From Phoronis australis (taxonomy: Eukaryota > Animalia > Phoronida): DNA of 64,000 bases. The position numbers and the translations under genes were made by a program. The stretch is from assembly GCA_002633005.1 (NCBI GenBank), contig NMRA01000429.1, positions 305,532-369,531 on the forward strand. Direction: 5' to 3'. The notes under the pieces are model-generated. The model did no database searches and was not told the origin of the DNA. It was given only the letters and a program-made list of their open reading frames with translations. How positions within the stretch are numbered: position 1 is the first letter of the stretch; every line of letters starts with the position of its first letter. Shown here piece after piece: positions 1 to 28,719 of this stretch.

Positions 1-48
1 GACCTTCAGTACTTGAGTGAGCATGGTATACTGTGTGATTTATGTTGA
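1..48 (+). CDS. 3' end of the duplicate copy of the PHD-finger ORF (DLQYLSEHGILCDLC*)
   Basis: Identical to 2176-2223; start lies outside the window. Confidence 0.7.
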   Translation, partial: DLQYLSEHGILCDLC

Positions 49-58
49 ATTATTCAAC

Positions 59-115
59 GGTTCTTTTAAGAACCATTTCACGCTATACCTACAACCAACG
101 GCCCTTTTAAGGGCC
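59..115 (+). promoter_or_regulatory. Two histone-type 3' stem-loops (duplicate copy)
   Basis: GGTTCT-TTTA-AGAACC at 59-74 and GGCCCT-TTTA-AGGGCC at 100-115. Confidence 0.8.
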
Positions 116-1270
116 ACTCAACACTTCCCAGAAGAACTGCTCACTTGAGAATGTTGATTTATCAACACGCTTTCGTAGTTTTCTCAGTAGGCCTATGTGA
201 ACCGTAAATCAAAAACTGTCCGATAACTATGCTGCTATTGGGCAAGCAGACGACATAAAGGGTCGGAACCGAAGTTTGAATTTTGAAATTAATTACCAGT
301 AGCATTGCCAAAAGTACTCACAATACCAACACTTCTACTATTGAAAGACTTTGAAAAGCGTTTCAATACCGAAATTAATATAAATTAATGTTTTTTCGCT
401 GTTTTGTACTGTAAAGTAGATGCAAGTATTTCTCGTCAAATTACACTGACCGGAAACTGCAGCAGATAGGTCAGGAGAGTTCAGCTCAGCTCGTAAGAAT
501 ATGCCGGAGTTGCGAATCTGTTGTCTATAATCTATGGTAAAACTAAGGCTACATCAGCATGTCACGCGAAAGGACCAGCGGGGGCGCATGCAAAATCTGG
601 TAGTCAACCGACACTCACATTGTTCGTTGCAGCCGTTTGAGTGGAAAACAATCGAATAAACGTCATTTTCTAGCATAATTCGCCGGCTTTTGTTACAAAG
701 AAGTGTGTCGTCAGTTTCAAAAACGGAACCCTCTTGACACGGCGCACGGCCCATTTTTTAAACCTTTGAGACGTCTTTCGGGAGATGATGACAGCTTCCC
801 AAGCACCACGGTTTGTTCTAAAATTCGGTTTGCTGGTATAAAAATACTAAAAACTTGTAACGAAATGAAACAATTTCCGATAATTTGTTGCGACATGTAT
901 GCAACCTATGTGCCGGCAGTGAAGAACGCTTGATAAAAGAATCGGGGGAAAAATCTCGTAAATGTCAGGTGACGTAATCGCAAAAAGCCCACTCAAGAGA
1001 TCCCATAACAATTTTAGCAGCAGACGATTAACGATCGCCGATTCTTTCAACACCGGTAAATAAGTTAGTTTACTCAAGGATGAGAGTAGTTTTAATGACA
1101 CTAATTTTAAGTCAGATTTTATTTGTCCATTTAACAATGAGCATACTTACAATAACACAAAAACAAGAACAACACAGACNATAATCATCCACTTTGTTAA
1201 TTTACTTCACCTACACAATTGGAAATAGCCGCTAAAATGAAACTCATTCGAGTAAGAACCACGTCATCGT

Positions 1271-1407
1271 CATGCGCGCACTCAGAGGGGGGGTTCGAGC
1301 CCCCATTTGGCGAAGTGGGCAAAAAGGTCTGCCCGCTCTCTTGTTTACAACAGGTCCATTACGTCAGGAATTCGAGCCTCCCATTTTGAAGACTGGGTGC
1401 GCGCATG
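1271..1407. mobile_element. GC-rich MITE, same family as 12280-12542
   Basis: TIRs CATGCGCGCACTCAG...CTGGGTGCGCGCATG; shared internal TTTGGCGAAGTGGGCA; no clean TSD here. Confidence 0.8.
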
Positions 1408-1579
1408 CACGTGAGTCCCTGGACAGCCCCAATATCGGGTAGAACCCAAGGAGTTCAAGTCGGGGTTAAATCAGGATGGGCATAAATAAGGAAATTTACT
1501 GTATCAACAGATTAGACAAATAAGAATAAGATACAAAGCATTGGTACAGTGTACACGCGCACAATAACTGGGTCTATCA

Positions 1580-1747
1580 TTTTCCCGCCACAAGCGATTG
1601 AACCAATCGGATCACTAATGGCGCAAACCTTTTGAAAACAAGCCTGATATTTAGGGAGTCTGTTACTGCTCTTTATATTTTCAAAACTTTAATTTGTTAT
1701 AGATAATTTATTTGCTGTGCACCTCAATGAGACCAGTTTATATATAT
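1580..1747 (+). promoter_or_regulatory. Putative cell-cycle-type promoter of the PHD ORF
   Basis: E2F-like TTTTCCCGCC 1580-1589, CCAAT 1603-1607, GGCGC 1620-1624, CHR-like TTTGAA 1631-1636, TA-rich box 1737-1747. Confidence 0.45.
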
Positions 1748-1905
1748 GCATTTAACACGATTAATACATTGTAAAACCATAGATTATGCACTATCAACAT
1801 GAGACAAAAACAGTACACCCCTTTATTAAAAAATGGGTTAAAGGTTAGAAACAAAGGACGAGAGCGTAGACAAGTTTCCATCACTTGCAACGTCGATTTT
1901 TTACG

Positions 1906-2223
1906 ATGGACGTTGGAGAAGAACATCAGTCTGGTGACAGCAACACGGAATCGCACAAAGGCGATGATTTTCGAAATTTGATTCGTTGTGTTGTTTGTCA
2001 TTTTTTTCCTACAGTTCAGGATTATTTGTGGATACAGGAACAAGAACTGAACGATGCAGGGTTCGTGACAACGTTGGTGAACGGTAATATCTATCTAAGG
2101 TGTTACAACTGTCATCGATATTGTCATCTCCTCTGTTTTCATCCAACCTTCCCAGATGAAAACTTGAATGAAGAGGACCTTCAGTACTTGAGTGAGCATG
2201 GTATACTGTGTGATTTATGTTGA
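1906..2223 (+). CDS. Small intronless PHD-finger (C4HC3) protein, 105 aa
   Basis: ATG 1906, TGA 2221-2223; CVVC...CYNCHRYCHLLC...CDLC matches C-x2-C, C-x2-C-x4-H-x2-C, C-x2-C; acidic N-terminus. Confidence 0.8.
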   Translation: MDVGEEHQSGDSNTESHKGDDFRNLIRCVVCHFFPTVQDYLWIQEQELNDAGFVTTLVNGNIYLRCYNCHRYCHLLCFHPTFPDENLNEEDLQYLSEHGILCDLC

Positions 2224-2230
2224 ATTATTC

Positions 2231-2311
2231 AACGGTTCTTTTAAGAACCATTTCACGCTATACCTACAACCAACGGCCCTTTTAAGGGCCACTCAACACT
2301 TCCCAGAAGAA
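2231..2311 (+). promoter_or_regulatory. Two tandem replication-dependent-histone-type 3' stem-loops plus possible histone downstream element
   Basis: AAC-GGTTCT-TTTA-AGAACC-A (stem-loop 2234-2249) and AAC-GGCCCT-TTTA-AGGGCC-ACTCA (2275-2290); purine-rich CAGAAGAA 2304-2311. Confidence 0.8.
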
Positions 2312-3345
2312 CTGCTCACTTGAGAATGTTGATTTATCAACACGCTTTCGTAGTTTTCTCAGTAGGCCTATGTGAACCGTAAATCAAAAACTGTCCGATA
2401 ACTATGCTGCTATTGGGCAAGCAGACGACATAAAGGGTCGGAACCGAAGTTTGAATTTTGAAATTAATTACCAGTAGCATTGCCAAAAGTACTCACAATA
2501 CCAACACTTCTACTATTGAAAGACTTTGAAAAGCGTTTCAATACCGAAATTAATATAAATTAATGTTTTTTCGCTGTTTTGTACTGTAAAGTAGATGCAA
2601 GTATTTCTCGTCAAATTACACTGACCGGAAACTGCAGCAGATAGGTCAGGAGAGTTCAGCTCAGCTCGTAAGAATATGCCGGAGTTGCGAATCTGTTGTC
2701 TATAATCTATGGTAAAACTAAGGCTACATCAGCATGTCACGCGAAAGGACCAGCGGGGGCGCATGCAAAATCTGGTAGTCAACCGACACTCACATTGTTC
2801 GTTGCAGCCGTTTGAGTGGAAAACAATCGAATAAACGTCATTTTCTAGCATAATTCGCCGGCTTTTGTTACAAAGAAGTGTGTCGTCAGTTTCAAAAACG
2901 GAACCCTCTTGACACGGCGCACGGCCCATTTTTTAAACCTTTGAGACGTCTTTCGGGAGATGATGACAGCTTCCCAAGCACCACGGTTTGTTCTAAAATT
3001 CGGTTTGCTGGTATAAAAATACTAAAAACTTGTAACGAAATGAAACAATTTCCGATAATTTGTTGCGACATGTATGCAACCTATGTGCCGGCAGTGAAGA
3101 ACGCTTGATAAAAGAATCGGGGGAAAAATCTCGTAAATGTCAGGTGACGTAATCGCAAAAAGCCCACTCAAGAGATCCCATAACAATTTTAGCAGCAGAC
3201 GATTAACGATCGCCGATTCTTTCAACACCGGTAAATAAGTTAGTTTACTCAAGGATGAGAGTAGTTTTAATGACACTAATTTTAAGTCAGATTTTATTTG
3301 TCCATTTAACAATGAGCATACTTACAATAACACAAAAACAAGAAC

Positions 3346-3364
3346 AACACAGACACGCACGCAC

Positions 3365-4389: not shown

Positions 4390-5711
4390 ACTGGTGGTCA
4401 TAGAAGACCCGGTGCTTTCCGATATTCCCCGAGACCGATGTAGCTCAGAGCTACGTAAACAGTGTCCTGGTGCGCTGCATTGTGGCACCATTTGGATCGA
4501 CTGCAGAAAGAATGGTTTGCTCAGTTTCACCACTTAGCCATTAGTGACACATCTGTGGTGCATGAATCTACAACCATGTTGCTATACTGGCATCGATATT
4601 TGTTGGTCAGTGATACCAATCATACCGTCATTGTCTGAATAATTTTGACGACGAGCAAGTCCTTTCTTGACAACAAACACCGAGGGTGCCTAAGGTTAGT
4701 GATGATGCCAAAGCGATAGCTGAGCATATCAACAAATACTTTTTGCGACAACCCTACGCTGAAAAATTCTCTAACACCTTCATGTCTACCCAAATTGGAA
4801 TATTTTTAGTAACAGAAAACAATGCCTATCGTGCGAGACCGATTTTATAACAGCGTTTTTGTTATTCAGCCAGCAAAACTAGTAGTACTGCAGAGTATCT
4901 TTAAACCCATCCCATTATCATCAGACACGTAAATCTGTTGTAGCGTGATAAATATTAAGTCCTGTATTTTCTTCAGATTATGTTATCAGGACTGTTAACA
5001 GATGGAAGCGCTCTCAATCAGTGGAAGTGGTTAACTAAAGTAAAACCGAAATAATACTGTCAAATAATAAACATAAAAATAGTCCCCATCTCTCGAGCGG
5101 TGCGTTCTTCATCAGAGGCAAGAAGCAGGCTGACAAATAGATTGCCATGAATGAAATATACCTGTAGTACAGGTGACAGCATGTTTTTTTACTATTTTTA
5201 CTATTTTATATTCTCATCCGTTGGTAATTGCACGGCATCTATTTTATTTATTTAGAAATATATTTTAAAAAATTTCGTGATATGCGTTATTTTTGATCTG
5301 TGGTGAACTGAAATGTATCAGTGCAAAAAGTCTTTAATTAAACATGGAACATAGCTAATAATCTAAGCAACAGTGGCTAAAAAGTTGAGACGACTTGCAT
5401 GTTTTTTGTTTTTCTAAACAAGAGTCTTGACACAACAAATTTTCATTTTTGGAGTCAACCCAAGAGATAATAATAGGACACCAATTTCAAAAATTCGTGA
5501 CGAGTCATGTTCCCAAACCACTGCGTTTTGACAGATTCTTCCGTGCAGGCATTCTTTACACTTCCCTGTTTTGTCCGCAGAATATTTTGCTAGATGTTTG
5601 ACAACATCATTGTGTAGGATCTCAAAACTGGTAATCAAATAGAAACGTGTCAATATAGTAGCTACGCTTTGATCAAAATGCTCATAATTTGTAATGTCTC
5701 TAATTTTTAAG

Positions 5712-6325
5712 GCACCGGATATACTGGACATCTATTGTTGAGACCAAATAACGCCCTGAAGAGTTTCATTGCGTCTTGTGACAGCGGATGGACAGTTATT
5801 CAGCGCAGGCTCGACGGAAGTTTGGATTTCAACAAAGGATGGGAGGACTATAAAGTTGGGTTTGGGGAAAGAGACGGTGAAATGTGGCTCGGAAATGAAA
5901 ACATTCACTACATTACCAAGCAGGGTCAGTACAAATTAAAGCATATTGTGAGTCTGTGGAATGGCACGCATTTTTCACATGGCCACAGTGTTTTTGCCAT
6001 TGCCAACGAGACGGAGAAGTACAAGTTGACTGTGTCAGCTATGTTGCTGTCGACCGGGTTAACGTCTCCCTTTCGTGGCTTAGATCTAGTCAACGGCTCA
6101 AAGTTCACCACCCTCGACTCGAACAATGATAGCAACTCGCGCAATTGCGCTATTGAGGGAAAGGGTGGATGGTGGTACAATACATGTTGTGCTTTCTGCG
6201 TGAATAACCTCTACCCCCTCGAAGGTTCTTGTCCAAAAAAAACAGTATGTATGAGTTTAAAGCGCAAGAGTGGACCGCCCAGACTCATGCTAAAACGTTC
6301 CGTAATGAAAATAAAGAGGAATTGA
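5712..6325 (+). CDS. Terminal exon of a fibrinogen-related domain (FReD; ficolin/tachylectin/angiopoietin-like) gene
   Basis: GWTVIQRRLDGSLDF, WEDYKVGFG, EMWLGNENIH, FTTLDSNND, NCA..GGWWYNTC, MKIKR; acceptor TTTTTAAG ending 5711; upstream exons not resolved. Confidence 0.9.
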
Positions 6326-9590: not shown

Positions 9591-12500
9591 TGTCCCCGTT
9601 TCAAAAGATGGTGTGTACAACTACAAACATTTTTTTTCTTTTTTAACCAAACTTAACATATTTACAACTTAACTAAACGCGTTCGTAATACAACTCTCCC
9701 ACAAACATACTTTTAGGACCTCACTCAAATCCTAGACAAAATAACAGCAATAATATTATCCTTTCCTCTGATATGTCAAACATCAAGGTTGAGCTCCTGC
9801 ACAATGAGACTCCATCTAAGTATTCTCAGATTTTTCCCTTCATCTTATTTAAAAATATGGCCGGTTGTGATCAGTATATACAATCAACCGTGAACTCATA
9901 GACAAAACATAAACTTCGGGAGTGCTGAAACACCAAAATCAATGCGAAAGCCTCCTTTTCAATGGTTGAATAACAGCGCTGGTTCCTACTGAATTTCGTA
10001 GAATAATAGCACACAGAGTGATCTATGTCATGACCATCTTCCTGTAACAAAACCACCTGCTCCAACATCAAAAGCATCAACAGCCAACTTTGGCATGCAT
10101 CGGTCTACACAAACTTCACTTTACTTGAAGTCAAACTAGTCAAAGGTAATACAACCTCGGAATAATTTCTACAAAACCGTCTATAGAAACCGGCCATTCA
10201 CAGGAATCTAGACAAAATAGCACTTCCCCTCTTCCAGCAACTTGACCTAAAAACGTCACACATGCATGACCGGGATCACTTTAGCCAAATTGAAAGATAA
10301 TTTAGCATCACACAAACGCTGGAAAAGTTGCCTCAAATCACACAAATGTGCATCCCAAGTAGGACTACTAACTATAATGTCATCAAAGTAAACTTGGACG
10401 TTAGGTAAACCATTCAATACAGTATTCATCAATTCCTGAAAAGTCGCAGCAGCAGTTTTCATACCGCACGGCATAATACAATACTGCCGCAAACCATCAG
10501 GGGTTGCAAATGCAGACAACTCTAGCTCGCGCACTAAGCGGAACCTGCCAATACCATTTTTAAAAGGGTATTGTTAAAACATATCAAACTTAATTATAAA
10601 TTCTGCATTTCCAGCACGATTAATGCAATCGTCAACCCTCGGAACAGAGTACGCATCACCCTTGGTCACCAAGTTCAATTTTCTGAAATCAGTCACAAAT
10701 CTTACAGACTTGTCAGGCTTCGGAACAGGGATACATGGATAACTCCAATTACTCTGACTAGGTTCAATGATTCCATTATCCAACATATACTGAACCTCAT
10801 TTTTCATTAACTCTAACTTGGGGGGAGAAATTCTATAAGGGTGCTGCTTAACAGGATCAGCATCTCCAACATCGACATCATGAAACAACAGTTTTTCTAG
10901 TCACATCTGGAAACAATTAACTGAATTCCCTTAAGAGACTTTGAAGCGCGTGTCGCTGATCAACACTCAAATGACTCAATTTCTCTTGCAAGTTGCTAAG
11001 AAACTGAGAGTCGCAGAACTTGAGCGAAATACCTATAAAGCAGGTCCTTCAAAATCATAACCCGAATCAACAGTTGCAACAGTTTTATCAACATGATCAC
11101 CAGACTTTTCACGATACTCTTTAAGCATGTTTACATGACAAATGAGTCGGGCAAAACGTCAAATTCAATACCAAGTACCAAATGTGTACTAACTGCCAAA
11201 TGGGCAAATATCAAACAAAGTACCAAGTGGGTACACCAAACAGCCAACTGGGGTATAACAACCTGCAAATCAGGTTCCGGACAAGCTGAGTGAGCAGACC
11301 AGCCGCAGTGATAAAAAGAGATATTGTAAGAAACGTGGTGTTGTGGCTCAGTATGTGCCACATGGGCAGGGTTGTTCATGGATGAACAATCCTGTCCACC
11401 GCCACAACCCTCTCCACCATATACGGTCCAGAAAATTTAGCATTCAAAGAATCCCCAGGCATTGGTAACAGAACCAACACTTTGTCACTTGGACTAAAAT
11501 GCCTGTCACGGTCAATGCAAGTTTTCATAGATATCTGAGCATCTTTCAGATGCTTATGAGCCACGGTTCTAACCTCAAACAACCTATCTTCCAAATCTGA
11601 CACATAGCTCAATAAATCCACTGGGGGTATCTTTCACTCAACCACGTTTCTTTCAACAGTTTAAGCGCACCACGGGGTTGACGCCCAAAAATCAAATCAA
11701 ATAGGCTAAAACCCAGAGAATATTGTATTGTTTCCCTGTGCGCAAACAGTAAAAGTGGAACACCATCATCCCAATTCTCTTCATGAGACAAACAGTAAGC
11801 CCTTGACATTGTCTTAAAAGTTTGATAAAATCTTCCAAGAGCACCTTGAGATTCAGGGAGATAAGCGCTGGAAATGGTCAATTTTCAACAAATACATCAG
11901 ATGCTGAAAAACGCCAGGCATAAAATTTGACCCTTGGTCAGATTGAATTGACTTAAGAACGCCAACTAAAGTAAGGAACTTTACCAAAGCCTTTACTACT
12001 TCTATTTTCCTTAACGGAATAGCTTCAGAAAAACGTGTGGGATAATACATTACTGTCAATAAATACTGGTTGCCCGTTTTTATTTTTGGCAATGGACGTA
12101 TACAATCGACAATGACATGACTAAATGGCTCGCCGAACACCGGAATTGGTTTTAATGGAGCTTCAGAGATAACTTGATTTGGCTTTCCCACCAACTGGCA
12201 CAAATGACAAGTTCTACGAAAATTCCTAACATCTCTATCAATACCGCGCCAAAACAAATGACTCAGAACACGATCTTTGCATGAGCGCACCCAAGGTGGG
12301 CTCGGAGGGGCTCGAACGAGTCCCCCTCTCACATTTTGGCGAAGTGGGCATAAAGGTCCGCCTCAGAGAAAGAAAAAGGTCCTAGGAAAACGAGACAAAC
12401 GTCCACTAAAAAGGCACAGACACACAGCTCACAGTACTGAAGATGGTCCCCCGTTTTTTTAGTCATCCAGCTTTTTGTTAGCAAAAGGTCCACTTGGTCA

Positions 12501-13500
12501 GAAATTCGAACCCCAACAAACTAAAGGCTGGGTGCGCGCATGCTTTGGTCTTATTAATTGCAAAGTGACCAGCCATAGGTCCTTCATGAGCCAAATACAG
12601 CACCTCCTGGCCGTATTGCCTAAGAAATACTACATGTAACTGGTGCAGTACATGCAAAATATCAAAAGAAAAAACGTCAGATGGTCTCCATTTACGCATT
12701 AAGAAACCATTTTTCAGATAATAACCGACAGCAACTTTATCCTTTATCAGCCTCTTCTTCCAAAACAGCGTGACTATACGCTAGATCATCGTCTTGCTGA
12801 AGTTCCATAAGCTTAGAGCGCGAATACCTGCCAGTACAATCAGACACAGCCTCAAACTGCTGAACTATGAAAGTACAGTGTATCTGACAAATCAGAATTA
12901 TAATACACGTCGCACTCACTTTACGCAGCTGCCTTAGCCTTAGCTTCAGTAAGTACACAGGACGATGTTGAATTATCACAATCATATACAGGGATAGGTC
13001 CATCGACATCACAGGTTTAACAGTCACGTTACTACCTATAACATCATTTCCTTGCAACAAGAGTTATACCGCGAACGGGCATAGAGGGCACAACACCTGC
13101 AGAAATGTGCCGTAAACAAATCTGACGTGGGCAAAACTTCTTGCTGAGGTACACTGCAGCTACCACCGATGCCAGAAAGGGAAACTCGAATCTCAGAGGA
13201 GATAAACTCAGACGAAGGAACCACGCCCTCCAACAACAAAGTCTGAGCAGATGCAATATCCCGCAAAATCACGACAGGCCAACTTTGGTAATAGTGGGAG
13301 CGGACCTTTTGAAGTGCAGATGCAGGATTTTGTCCAGAGGGTCCGAAAATGGACCGGCATGCACTGTAGGTGGTGCGCGGGATTCTTAGACCATTTTGAT
13401 GTTCAAAAACTGACCAAGCAGGGGATTTTGGGCCCACTTTAAAGCAAAATTTGCTTCTCTGAAGTATGATGCGGTGAAAGGGTTTATTATTAACTCATCG
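9591..13500 (-). mobile_element. Decayed Gypsy/Ty3-superfamily LTR retrotransposon internal region
   Basis: Protease-like VVILRDIASAQTLL; integrase (AHEGPMAGHF, FSHVIVDCIRPLP, IQSDQGSNF, KFSGPY); RT (PVKQHPYR, DFRKLN, VYFDDIIV); RNase H (YSTIEKEAFAL); many frameshifts; 5' LTR not found. Confidence 0.92.
12280..12542. mobile_element. MITE inserted in Gypsy integrase, 5-bp TSD CTTTG
   Basis: TIRs CATGAGCGCACCCA...TGGGTGCGCGCATG; CTTTG at 12275-12279 and 12543-12547; removal restores NKTKDRVLSH. Confidence 0.9.
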
Positions 13501-13939
13501 GTGCATTATATTTGACTTTTTGAGCTCTTTAATCCTATAATAGTTTTTCACTGTTGCACCCGCAAAAACTGAAAATCCTTAAAGAAAAGATCTGTCCGAC
13601 AGCTTCCCGTGGTCTCCGGTAGCAACACGAATGATATTTATTTGTTTAGCATCTTGCGCGTTAGATAATTGCTCAACCGAATAGCGCAACCTAGAGTCTC
13701 TTAATCTAACTGACCGTCACAGATTGACAGAAAACTGTGTAACTGGGTTATGTAAAAACTGACTACCCAAAACTAAGAACGAGGCCAGATTTTTGGGCTC
13801 AACAAAGACAGTAGCAGCAGGTGAAAACTAGCTCATGATCCAAAATTTTTCGATAAAAGATTTGGGACTCTCTCCAACCACTCTTCCGGCCCTCTCTTCC
13901 AGTTACCTAATGGTTCCCCCATCACTCGCTCTTACTTCA

Positions 13940-14125
13940 CTCGCCACCTTAACTTGGTACTTGGGTGCGTCGGTCTCGATCCTCAACGCTATAAATCCCA
14001 TAGTTTTCGTATCGGTGCAGCCACCTCCGCTGCTACCCTCCAAATTCCGGACTCCGCAGTCCAGCGTATGGGTCGCTGGAAGTCTGACGCGCTCAAGAAC
14101 TACATTCGTCTCTCCTCCTTAAACT
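13940..14125 (+). mobile_element. Tyrosine recombinase C-terminal fragment (DIRS/Ngaro or Crypton relic)
   Basis: YKSHSFRIGAATSAA...MGRWKSDALKNYIR carries the HxxR, W and catalytic Y motifs. Confidence 0.9.
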
Positions 14126-14990
14126 TGCCCGATGCTAACGTTCCCACTCCTTCATTGCCATGATCATCCACCACCCAGGGGCAGCTCTACAGTCAGTGCT
14201 TCCCCTTCTTACACTGCCACTTCATCCTGGGGCATCTGTATTGCCAGTGCCCCCCCCCTCACTCACCACTCCCTTTTCATCGCGGGGCAACTGTATTGCC
14301 AGTGTCCCATTCATAGGCACCTGTATTGCCGGTGTCTCTTTCACTCACACCATTTCTCACCCTCGGACGCCTGTATTGGCAGTGTCCTAATTCCCTTATT
14401 CCCCATTTTCATTGGCATGTCCTTTCCACTCACCTTTTTGGGGTTCTCCCTCCCGGGCAGTCTTTCCCGCCCCTTTTATATTTGTTGTTGGTTTACCTCA
14501 TGCCCTATTATGGGTTATTCTATACTTAGCATTTTTTTCCATACTTTTTATAGGTTTACTTTTGCCGGGGCCTCCTTTTGCTGTTGCTTATCTGTATGTT
14601 GTTTGTACATGTCACCGTTTTTGTTTACTTATACCTATATTCACCTCTTTCACGAACGCGGGGCGCTGCTGTCGTGTTGATCGAAAACGAGGCGCCTTGA
14701 CAAACATGGCATCGTCCTGCAAGGTGGTGTGGTCAAAAGACTTATCAAAGTTGAAGTTGTCTGATGTTGAATCGATCTCCAAAAAACATACCAATACTTA
14801 CGGCAACTAGACTTTTACCCTCCTCAGCCATTCCTTAGTAGTTTTCCCTCTTTTGAAAAAGTGTGGAAGTCAGGGATATACGCAGGCTTTTAGTCTTGAA
14901 AAACCCTGCTCGGGCCAGCTGGGCGAGTGCCGGAGCCAGAAAATCTACTCGCCAAGCCCGAAGTTCGGTCACCCGGCCGTTGGCGTCAGT

Positions 14991-18851: not shown

Positions 18852-19823
18852 TTAATTTCCTCTTATGTTTTGTCTTATAGATTGTAGCACCTTCAAGAAT
18901 TCTGTGCGCACCGATTTGTTGATCATTCCATACACAACAGGGTTAAGGAAGTTGCAAGAGTTATACAGAGGCAGTGAGACCAACTCTACTTCACGCGCAA
19001 GTTCTTTTTCAGGTGCATACATTTTCGCCATACGCGAGCCCACATACGGAAATAACGATAGAATATAACAAGACGTAATACCGAATAACACTATCGACGC
19101 CTTCATTTGCGACCTCAGTTGTCTCTGTTTCTCTTTCCCTTCCGAGTCTGCGGCCAAAGGCACTGGAACTTTCGAGAGTTTCCTGGACTCTCTGAAAATT
19201 CGTACGTAACACCAGCACATAACAAGAGATGTTGGAAAGAAAATCGCTCCCATTACAGCAACAACTGTCCTAGTTCCAACATCCTTGTCACGTCGACTCC
19301 AGTCAAGTTGACAGGCATTTAGATAAGAGTCAAATTCGTACTTGCCGAAACCAAACAAAGGCGGACACGTGATTATCACAGGTACCACCCATGATGCAAC
19401 TATCATCCACTTTGTCAGGCGGTTATTTATTTTTAAATGATAATGCATTGGCTTTACGCATGCGTAGAAACGCTCAATGCTGATGCACAAGAGAGTCGTC
19501 ATGGATTGAATTCCTAAGCAATTCTGAAGAAATCCGATAACACTACAAAGAATTTCACTGTTCTGAAGCATCTCAACGCCGTATACGGTTATCCACAGTG
19601 TAATGGGAAAAGATATATCTCCTATAGCCAAATTGGATACAAGATAATACCCAGGAGAGTGTAATGGATAACGAGAGTAAACAGTGTAAAGCAACAAGAT
19701 GTTAGACGGAACTGTCAGAAGAGTTGTAGCTGTGTAGTAGACTTGGTACCATAAAAGGTTTTCTGGACTGGTAGAGGAATCGTTTCTGCTCAATGGCATG
19801 CTGAGGAACTCTGTAAAATTCAT
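18852..19823 (-). CDS. Intronless rhodopsin-class (class A) orphan GPCR, paralog 1
   Basis: Seven hydrophobic segments, SNLAIGD (TM2), ISIERF (TM3), WVVP (TM4), LNPVVYG (TM7); start assumed at MNFT, frame open to 19922. Confidence 0.93.
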   Translation of the reverse strand: MNFTEFLSMPLSRNDSSTSPENLLWYQVYYTATTLLTVPSNILLLYTVYSRYPLHSPGYYLVSNLAIGDISFPITLWITVYGVEMLQNSEILCSVIGFLQNCLGIQSMTTLLCISIERFYACVKPMHYHLKINNRLTKWMIVASWVVPVIITCPPLFGFGKYEFDSYLNACQLDWSRRDKDVGTRTVVAVMGAIFFPTSLVMCWCYVRIFRESRKLSKVPVPLAADSEGKEKQRQLRSQMKASIVLFGITSCYILSLFPYVGSRMAKMYAPEKELAREVELVSLPLYNSCNFLNPVVYGMINKSVRTEFLKVLQSIRQNIRGN

Positions 19824-20192
19824 GATGTTGTGAATTTGTTGGCTTCGGGATCTGAAAAACATTTTGATAGCATTAAACTCGATATGCATAGTTTTCCTGC
19901 TTTGAATTACATGTTGAGTCATAATAAAACGCCAAGTATTACTGCGACATTTGTCATACTTCTTTTCACTTTCGATTTATACAATTTAGATCGCAGCGAC
20001 AAATCAAGTAAATTAGATAAATAAATAAAATTGCGTTGTTGCTCTGCGAAATACAGTTTTTACTCAAAAACTTTAGAGCGTGACAAGTTCACAACTATAT
20101 AGTGATGGACAAATACCATTGTAAACGTTATCATGCTGTGCAATATTTCAGAACAGTATTGTATATAGATTATCATTTACATATATAAAGAT

Positions 20193-24044: not shown

Positions 24045-24930
24045 TTTTTCATATTTTTATTTTGCTCCAGCATGATAGTTACATATCTCATAAAACAATA
24101 CAGTACACATAGTTTACAAAGAATAACATTAAATCATTAGTCAAAAAGTACCGTATTTCCTTCAGCATGTAATTTAATGAAGTTAATGAACAATTGGAAA
24201 ATTAAGGTTTTTTAACAAACCTTTGGCTAAATATGTAATTTTTGCTAACATGATCAACAGATTAAAATTACAATTTTCCGTCTGAATGTTTCCCAAAAAA
24301 CAAAAAAACACTGCTATCCTGTCCACATGGAAATTTAAATGATATGTTTGTTTTAACCACTCAGCAAACAGGAGCCAGAAACAGGAGACAAGACGACATT
24401 CCCAAAACAGATGGAGAAAAGTTTCACTGTGTTCACCACAGAATGAGCATAGATCACTTGTTTTTTTTTTAATTCTATGTAAATAATTATTAGTTGGTAA
24501 TATTCTGAGAATTATGCGGTATTGAAACCAACGCAATTTTGTATCTTTTGTACAATGTGAGTTTATTTACATTACTCCACTCTTTATCAGAGTCACTAAA
24601 ATTTGCATTATTTATAACACCGTTTATTTCTATCTCAGATGACCACTTGCTTTTATATTTACAAGTTGTCTGAAGTGACTGTACTAAGGTGCCATAAATA
24701 TTTACCCCTTGTGATCTACATTCTGTATTATGTAAAATTTTATTAATATAACTTGGAAAAATTTGGTAAAAAGATATTATCTTGTCTCTTCTTAAAACCC
24801 CTGTACGCTGCAAAGGTTTCACTTCTTAAGCCATAGAATTCTAGTATTATAGGTTGAAAGTTATAACTATTACAGAGTTGTTCGTATGACATAAAAGAAC
24901 CTTCAGCATTAAACAAATCACACACACGAT
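24045..24930 (-). mobile_element. L1/Tx1-like LINE 3' fragment
   Basis: FQYRIILRILPTN...CSFCGEHSETFLHLFWEC (zf-RVT); same family as 57119-57948. Confidence 0.88.
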
Positions 24931-27039: not shown

Positions 27040-28020
27040 TTAATAGCACCTTACTTTCCCCCTTAAATTTTTAAGCACTATTACGAATTCATCACGAACT
27101 GTCTTGTTAATCACTCCATATAGAATAGGATTCAAAAAATTACACGTGTTGTACAAAGGCAGCGAAATCAATTCAACTTCCCGCATGATCCTAGAATATT
27201 CCTTGTTCATCGAATCTGTGAACATTTTCGCTTGTCGTGAACCTACATAAGGGAATAACGACAAGATGTAACCAAATGTAATGGCAAATAACACCAACGA
27301 CGCCTTTATCTGCGACCTTAGCTGCCTCTGCTTCTCTTTTGCCTCTGCGTCTCTGGGTAATGACGCTGGACTTTTCGCGAGTTTCCTGGATGCCATGTAA
27401 ATCCTTACATAGCAAAAACATAAAACAAGCGAAGATGGGAAGAAAATGGCTCCCATTAAACCGATGACCGTCAGAGTTCCAAAATCACGACGACCCCAGT
27501 CAAGTTGACAAGCAATTAGATAAGAATCAAATTCGTACTTCCCGAGACCAAACAAAGGCGGACTCGTGATTATCACAGGTAGCACCCAAGATGCAAATAT
27601 CATACACTTCGTCAGGCGATTAGTTATTTTTAAATGGTAATGCATTGGCTTTACGCATGCGTAGAAACGCTCTATGCTAATGCACAAGAGTGTCGTCATC
27701 GATTGAACTCCTAAACAATTCTGAAGAAATCCGATAACACTACAAAGATTTTCATTGTTCTGAAGCAACTCCAACCCGTATACAGTTATCCACAGTGTGA
27801 TGGGAAAAGATATATCTCCAACAGCCAAACTCGAAACAAGATAATAACCAGGAGCATGTAGCGGATAACGAGAGTAAATTGTATAAAGTAACATGATATT
27901 CGATAGAACTGTTATAAGTGGTATGACAGTGTAGTAGACTTCAAACCCCAAACGGTTATCTTCATTGATAAGCGAATCGGTTTTGTTAAGTGATATATTA
28001 ATGAACACTGTAGAATCCAT
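27040..28020 (-). CDS. Intronless rhodopsin-class orphan GPCR, paralog 2
   Basis: Closely similar to paralog 1 (YSRYPLH.PGYYLVS, LLCISIERFYACVKPMHYHLKI, ACQLDW, LNPILYG); start assumed at MDST, frame open to 28134. Confidence 0.93.
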   Translation of the reverse strand: MDSTVFINISLNKTDSLINEDNRLGFEVYYTVIPLITVLSNIMLLYTIYSRYPLHAPGYYLVSSLAVGDISFPITLWITVYGLELLQNNENLCSVIGFLQNCLGVQSMTTLLCISIERFYACVKPMHYHLKITNRLTKCMIFASWVLPVIITSPPLFGLGKYEFDSYLIACQLDWGRRDFGTLTVIGLMGAIFFPSSLVLCFCYVRIYMASRKLAKSPASLPRDAEAKEKQRQLRSQIKASLVLFAITFGYILSLFPYVGSRQAKMFTDSMNKEYSRIMREVELISLPLYNTCNFLNPILYGVINKTVRDEFVIVLKNLRGKVRCY

Positions 28021-28719
28021 AATATATTCGTTCTCCAGCAAGGTATTCTGAAAAATATTATATGTTACAATTAAAATAACAACATCAGAAAAGAAGCACC
28101 TGACGCAGCAATCAAAACCAATAACCAACTGCATAAAAATCGTATCATCGTTATTAATTTCAATTACGAAATATCCATTTAAAAGTCAACAGTGAACCAA
28201 ATGTGAAATCGGAAATCACCTAGTGACAATATACCTCTACATTTTCTCGCTTACTGCAAAACATAGTATACAGTGGCCGTCTACCATAGATGCGTAATGT
28301 TACGGCCGTCTTAATAATGTGATAACAACTGTTATATAATCTGGGTTTACGATCTAGTTATATCAACTATTATACAATTTGGGCTCATAAACTAGTTATA
28401 AACCAGTGTCACAGACTATAAATGGAAATGTTGATCAGTACCATGGTAACGCAGTTTCTAATTTTGTTGAAGATTGTTTTCTTGAAACAGCTTCATCGAA
28501 TTTCGATCCTGGTTTCTCTCACTTCGGACGCCACGATGATTTTTGTCACCGCTTCACCAGCACGTCAGAAAACTCGAAAGTCATCGTCGGTTTTATGCCG
28601 AAAAACACATATTGAGAATTACTGATAAAAATGCTGTGGTATGCGTTGTACAAGTACCAGACCGCTCAGATGGGTCTATTGCACTAATCGTTTGAAACCC
28701 ATTTTATGTTTTACTAATA

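Follow-up and report, generated by a model that had tools for sequence, protein, structure and literature searches.

According to the available text of two papers (PMC4604434; PMC5054213), the route by which SLBP and U7 form the 3' ends of histone messages serves these messages only, and in HeLa cells SLBP bound solely to histone mRNAs, as far as the accessible part of the former report goes (PMC4604434). What, then, is the role of two histone-type stem-loops placed immediately behind an open reading frame (ORF) that encodes a small PHD-like protein and no histone? The locus under study lies in a stretch of 64,000 nucleotides from the phoronid Phoronis australis (contig NMRA01000429.1), hereafter the window, whose features are collected in Table 1. 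Our preferred reading, for which belief and doubt are evenly balanced, is that the locus represents a derivative, without transposase, of a Sola-type DNA transposon, and that the PHD gene would be expressed via a borrowed histone 3' end that is cut by the SLBP/U7 route at hairpin 2. If this were true, a transposon-derived gene would constitute a second client class of that route, and the protein supply of a mobile element would be tied to S phase. The reading predicts one RNA end, at 2294-2295, which makes for a cheap test; without a mapped RNA end, what the locus offers is a well-formed signal in a repeat.

Table 1. Features of the locus and of its surroundings, numbered from the first letter of the window (for X1, see text).
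Feature	Position	Strand	Description
Exact duplicate of 2176-3354	1-1179	+	100% identical across a single N at 1180; ends where a CA microsatellite begins
Multi-copy repeat with PHD-like gene	1181-2855	.	Right edge near 2855; left end beyond the window
MITE-like insertion	1264-1454	.	Skipped by X1 contig; inverted repeats 1271-1285 and 1393-1407
Candidate Pol II promoter	1584-1744	+	GC box at 1584, CCAAT at 1603, TATA-like at 1672 and 1737-1744; motif matches only
Intronless ORF	1906-2223	+	105 aa, PHD-like C4HC3 finger; stop codon 2221-2223
Hairpin 1	2234-2249	+	Histone-type stem-loop, less canonical; 10 nt past the stop
Hairpin 2	2275-2290	+	Canonical histone stem-loop; predicted SLBP site ~2270-2295
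Purine run	2305-2311	+	Candidate histone downstream element
Shared block	2670-2713		44 nt common to a far more abundant repeat
AATAAA/ATTAAA hexamer	2830-2835	+	Sole one in 2224-3340; the repeat has its right edge ~20 nt further on
Fibrinogen C-terminal domain ORF	5711-6325	+	Pfam
Broken retroelement pieces	10256-14163 and 24183-24566		Reverse transcriptase, integrase zinc finger, weak tyrosine-recombinase match, zf-RVT
Paralogous rhodopsin-family GPCR genes	18852-19976 and 27040-28185	-	Single ORFs, Pfam 7tm_1; DNA 74-90% alike

A histone-type 3' end behind a non-histone reading frame

The letters and spacings described in the original prediction are all present in the sequence, and so are the two stem pairs by which the hairpins differ, both of which are fully compensatory. 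The hairpins are separated by a spacer of 25 nt (41 nt from start to start) and the second one is directly followed by ACTCA at 2291-2295. The view that both are canonical histone stem-loops has however to be narrowed to one of them: against the Rfam model RF00032 (Histone3), hairpin 2 attains 36 bits and exceeds the gathering value of 34 (E 8.3e-07, match 2270-2316), whereas hairpin 1, with 22.8-25.5 bits, stays under it. A second Rfam match at 95-141 is not independent, since it falls within the segment that duplicates 2176-3354. The strict hairpin pattern has two occurrences in the 62,057 unique non-N bases of the window and was met 0 times in 200 simulations at the dinucleotide level, each of 124,114 bases; in the same simulations a loose pattern occurred 0.275 times on average, with a maximum of 2. 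Both hairpins are also contained in the minimum-energy fold (z -3.43).

The anticipated purine-rich element is likewise found behind hairpin 2 and is missing behind hairpin 1. The bases at 2306-2310, 16 nt past the stem of hairpin 2, pair with the conserved UCUUU box of U7 through four Watson-Crick pairs and one G-U, the pairing being scored against the universally conserved 5-nt box and not against the species' own U7. According to the available text of PMC5054213, UCUUU is the universally conserved box of the histone-binding region of U7. A match to this box is weak evidence when taken alone, and it is its position that carries the weight. Behind hairpin 1 nothing at the usual distance pairs well with the U7 box and there is no U7-type purine run, which together with its score below the cut-off indicates that it is probably not a processing site. 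Cleavage takes place 4-5 nt after the stem, as stated in the accessible part of PMC7026596, and the predicted cut for hairpin 2 would therefore fall after 2294-2295.

The 105-aa ORF itself matches no histone family in Pfam, and within 1181-3340 none of the other 43 frames of at least 30 aa matches any Pfam family, histone or other. In agreement with what had been noted from the letters, no histone is thus visible here, and a decayed histone pseudogene was rejected as the source of the hairpins, as these frames hold no histone remnant. A hammerhead core was also looked for near the hairpins on the plus strand, and none was found.

The reading frame and its protein

The ORF is continuous. None of the five read joints listed has GT-AG ends and none is listed in 2060-2420, so that, within the limits set by a low depth, the description of the gene as intronless is upheld. 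Its description as a PHD finger fares less uniformly. The zinc ligands C28, C31, C66, C69, H74, C77, C102 and C105 follow the C4HC3 order, and each of the eight is either invariant or conserved to 90% or more throughout an alignment of 23 family rows, across which an acidic N-terminal S-x-T-E-S motif is also kept. The protein alone matches Pfam PHD weakly, below the cut-off (E 0.15), and the cut-off of PHD_NSD is passed by two of the eight homologs scanned; it is thus from its relatives that the PHD assignment draws support. We take Y63 and Y72 to stand at the positions of the PHD aromatic cage, the latter being occupied by Trp in the relatives P0006, P0036 and P0037.

The predicted structure is of fair quality (pLDDT 80.8), and in a VIA structure search PHD was named in 18 of the 20 top rows, with a best Z of 4.4 that is weak (rmsd 5.2, 66 aligned), while Foldseek returned no match for the same model at E 0.001. 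The leads of an Atlas search are headed by an unnamed match (0.91), the named ones being PHD families (0.85-0.88). In the model, the first loop of the finger spans 34 residues and contains a helix, and the protein stands alone. The best sequence match in the PDB is SLX1, a RING-variant (E 0.026), and an E3-ligase-like role may also be considered besides that of a PHD finger. We describe the protein as PHD-like, with binding to histone tails as a putative property.

The gene resides in a dispersed repeat

Sequencing reads were taken from one contig run (X1, which may be DNA) and from three raw RNA runs (X2 and X3 among them) that bear the same species label; the samples may be pooled individuals, and copies of the repeat are mixed in them. 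Among the records listed as containing the stretch, none is entered as RNA. The exact duplicate at the start of the window is probably an assembly (scaffolding) overlap and, if it is read in this way, the window does not include the left end of the element. The diversity of the reads evidences a dispersed multi-copy repeat with deletion derivatives. Indeed, the 244 X2 reads on 2060-2420 fall into several classes of identity, with 37 reads at 99% or more, 82 at 95-99%, 69 at 90-95% and 56 below 90%, and reads reveal copies with internal deletions (1987-2626 and 2491-2578) as well as truncated ones. Indels that shift the reading frame occur among copies at 1999, 2001, 2096, 2150 and 2156, and a non-coding flank of ~1.6 kb is common to the copies. 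A TIR or target duplication was sought in 1181-3340, a segment that excludes the left end of the element, and none was convincing; the inverted repeat 1234-1251/2827-2844 was rejected as a TIR, as an X1 contig continues past 1200.

The variants listed allow an analysis of selection among copies, which is confined to the best-supported 40 of 211. When the seven A>G rows are set aside, 8 of the 14 changes in the ORF are silent, in comparison with an expected fraction of 0.20-0.30 (p 0.002-0.033, a range that depends on the transition bias assumed), and none of these 14 listed variants alters a zinc ligand. The excess is weaker when T>C rows are also dropped (5 of 11, p 0.022-0.103). These results suggest coding constraint on the ORF. 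None of the 22 listed variants of non-editing type lies within the 32 hairpin bases, which is suggestive only (p 0.13).

A second X1 record bears on the origin of the 3' end. This contig of 381 nt shares 2265-2339, with 12 differences, and thus covers hairpin 2 and its downstream block behind a different upstream sequence of 296 nt; it could stem from a histone gene that acted as donor, or belong to a second non-histone family. A donor of this kind would suit the idea that the repeat happened to capture part of the 3' end of a histone gene, or a stem-loop cassette that is itself mobile, and carries it as an unused neutral passenger, the RNA being read-through and possibly polyadenylated near 2850. 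We regard this as possible, although on the unlikely side. It also accommodates the copies devoid of hairpins, represented by 6 and 3 reads that skip 1987-2626. A chance capture does not account, however, for a module in sense orientation 10 nt behind a stop codon, nor for two hairpins that differ by compensatory pairs only, nor for the silent excess in the ORF. In addition, the six differences listed, of the 12 in the second record, all spare the stem, and one of them makes the match to the U7 box perfect.

Relatives of the protein and the link to a transposase

A profile search retrieved 30 relatives among 864 candidates, most of them unnamed and the named ones all from Dreissena polymorpha; P0008 was dropped as a spurious repeat-protein match. 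Longer fused forms of 201-2000 aa were absent among 6532 candidates, which is weak evidence. Of 31 pattern matches, two were confirmed as metagenome loci that encode relatives (L001 and L002), and in both of these readable loci the PHD-like gene lies directly upstream of a Sola-type DDE transposase. In L001 (1-2465) the PHD stop codon occupies 181-183 and the transposase ATG follows two bases on, at 186; the transposase frame has one in-frame stop, and Pfam recognises DUF7869 above its cut-off in the 3' half of the frame (27.7 versus 26 bits). We presume that the L001-type transposase belongs to Sola1. L002 (about 1100-2400) has the same layout in a decayed state, with a pyrimidine tract and AG, resembling a 3' splice site, right before the PHD start; unlike L002, the window has upstream of its ORF a T-run without AG. 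Furthermore, in Dreissena P0030 the PHD continues into a fused segment of 50 aa with 54% identity to the L001 transposase (E 2e-13). The family comprises at least 30 stand-alone PHD-like proteins, whose readable members are accessory genes of transposons.

Identity between the protein of the window and the main family amounts to 30-42%, and the long branch that it shares with P0002 (65% identity where the two align) is uncertain in its placement, so that the link to transposons is one by family and not a direct one. A tblastn search for a transposase gave no match in 1181-3340 and a best E of 0.22 across the window, and Pfam detected no transposase in the 1181-3340 frames. Neither of the two readable loci has the hairpin; these homologs tell in part against the prediction, but they are distant relatives with a different layout.

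Regarding where the gene comes from, the original prediction had left a choice between host innovation and cargo of a virus or transposon. The relatives linked to transposases and the many variant copies favour transposon cargo, a gene invented by the host being less likely than a transposon derivative. Hairpin patterns had no match in viral contigs. For PHD relatives, two sets of pattern matches there, 37 and 6 in number, yielded no confirmed case, as did 14 matches in genome contigs, and plasmids gave none; the L001 transposase was confirmed for 0 of 19 in viral contigs. No indication of viral ancestry came from these collections, in which animal viruses are scarcely represented.

The same data bear on the possibility of domestication, in which a PHD gene of transposon origin would now form a host multigene family with histone-like expression and a role in host chromatin, an outcome that we consider unlikely. 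The promoter-like boxes, the intact ORF and its silent excess would be expected of such a family, no transposase or TIR was found in the segments searched, and the existence of P0002 indicates that the lineage is not a one-off. On the other hand, copies are deleted, truncated and frameshifted, they have the long non-coding flank in common, antisense RNA is comparable to sense, and no gene cluster is apparent in the surroundings, which hold fibrinogen-domain and GPCR genes and fragments of retroelements.

RNA over the locus

The preferred reading, in which a transposon-derived gene uses the histone 3' end for cleavage, also has to be confronted with the RNA. RNA over the gene is low, amounting to about 19, 20 and 3 reads per million records in the three runs. 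In all three raw-read runs reads pass through both hairpins, no pile-up of molecule ends is listed in 2060-2420, and the listed read rows include no poly(A) end; poly(A) selection, if used, would hide a hairpin-ended mRNA. The presumed sense depth over the ORF, the hairpins and the region beyond is 53.5, 25.6 and 29.4 in X2, and 42.6, 37.8 and 45.7 in X3. The drop in X2 is located at 2190-2203, where seven reads show a truncated copy, and for this reason it is no evidence of an end at the hairpin. The reads count against a dominant hairpin-ended message in the sampled RNA and tell in part against the transcript ends at the hairpins that had been foreseen. The hairpin-ended mRNA is a prediction from the anatomy of the DNA.

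Both strands are transcribed, antisense RNA being comparable in amount to sense, and two types of change are unevenly distributed between them. Summing X2 and X3 over 38 of the best-supported 40 of 211 variant rows (two rows seen in X1 only were left out), A>G is found in 15 of 413 first-mate-plus versus 146 of 751 first-mate-minus reads, and T>C in 149 of 428 versus 62 of 557, while the other changes are unbiased (195 of 1057 versus 313 of 1565). This pattern is what A-to-I editing of both strands would leave in stranded libraries, and we infer that much of the RNA is double-stranded repeat RNA. Such an editing-like signature is typical of passively transcribed repeats. Within 2060-2420, many A>G and T>C changes occur in reads that carry several other differences, which fits A-to-I hyper-editing, and these changes include hairpin loop bases on the antisense strand.

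Uninterrupted passage through the hairpins, the lack of listed ends and the strand-biased changes on both strands are all as a neutral passenger would have them. The same applies to the AATAAA at 2830, after which read depth drops past ~2855, although this drop occurs on both strands and may just mark the edge of the repeat. Passage through both hairpins would also suit a use of the hairpins as an SLBP decoy, or as a stability or export tag in longer transcripts, in place of a cut site. Two hairpins with a downstream element behind just one of them would be in line with this proposal, and a precedent is known from the H2AX mRNA, where an internal stem-loop occurs in a polyadenylated message (available text of PMC4604434). 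We nevertheless hold it to be very improbable: a decoy would call for more RNA than is present, and cutting is suggested by a U7-type run that lies at the right distance.

A model for the expression of the gene

Cleavage at hairpin 2 in a transposon-derived gene, as preferred here, draws on a score above the gathering value, a strict hairpin pattern absent from the simulations, a stop codon 10 nt away and a U7-type run at the expected distance. Against it stand the lack of listed ends, the low RNA on both strands, the hairpin-less homolog loci, and the failure to find a transposase in the window or a TIR. A more specific version can be proposed only tentatively, and we would sooner doubt than assert it: in a Sola-type lineage, a working histone 3' end would have taken the place of the transposase that followed the PHD gene, and the element would produce a chromatin-binding, non-histone microprotein from an unspliced, poly(A)-free mRNA through the host SLBP/U7 route, timed to replication or to the germ line.

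Under the preferred reading itself, the ancestral element would have had the PHD gene directly before the transposase, and in the present lineage the latter would have been lost from that place, where the stem-loop and the downstream element are now found. Pol II would start in the CCAAT/TATA region, SLBP would bind hairpin 2 and U7 would pair at 2306-2310, upon which CPSF73 would cut at ~2295 to yield an unspliced message of ~0.5-0.6 kb without poly(A). Hairpin 1 may be a spare SLBP site and not a cut site. Production of the protein would take place in S phase or in oocytes, and its action on chromatin would serve the element; alongside the hairpin-ended message, the many copies could also give rise to antisense and read-through RNA. 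What has been observed is the anatomy of the DNA and the link by family; cutting, timing and the function of the protein are proposals.

Comparison with known systems

In the titles and the openings of abstracts surveyed, a literature from which subscription journals were outside the scope, we found no description of a histone stem-loop on a gene of a transposon or on any other non-histone gene. The closest system is the 3' end of metazoan replication-dependent histone mRNAs (RF00032; SLBP, U7 snRNP, CPSF73), with which the locus shares the 6-bp stem, the 4-nt U-rich loop and the A/C-rich flanks near the stop codon, as well as a U7-fitting purine run 16 nt past the stem, the lack of any visible intron and CCAAT/TATA-like boxes upstream. 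In contrast to histone genes, the ORF in the window is non-histone, it is followed by two hairpins, it belongs to a dispersed and decaying repeat, and no processed end is seen in the reads.

Compared with Sola-type transposons, the copy in the window has no transposase, and its transposase-linked relatives have no hairpin. The L001 transposase shares SDG-x3-Q-x-[KR]-N with the portion seen of a published Sola2 alignment (PMC3627910, supplementary file 10), but it was rejected as a Sola2 member, being without the DF[AS]ENY and ATSHGK motifs. According to the available text of the same paper, there are Sola2 elements that have kept a cargo gene and lost most of the transposase, and Sola2 has short TIRs and a 4-bp AT-rich TSD (PMC3627910).

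With respect to its fold, the protein has the same C4HC3 ligand order as PHD fingers (MLL3/MLL4 PHD6, MLL1 PHD3, Pygo; PHD_NSD) and as RING-variant C4HC3 domains (the C-terminus of SLX1). It differs from these domains in standing alone, in the length and the helix of its 34-residue first loop, and in a structural similarity that does not go beyond a Z of 4.4.

Finally, U7 snRNA is reported to repress HERV1/LTR12 transcription via HDE-like motifs (bioRxiv 10.1101/2023.08.25.554787, abstract). Both cases link U7 with mobile DNA; the abstract names no stem-loop there, whereas the window has a full stem-loop and a downstream element behind a coding ORF.
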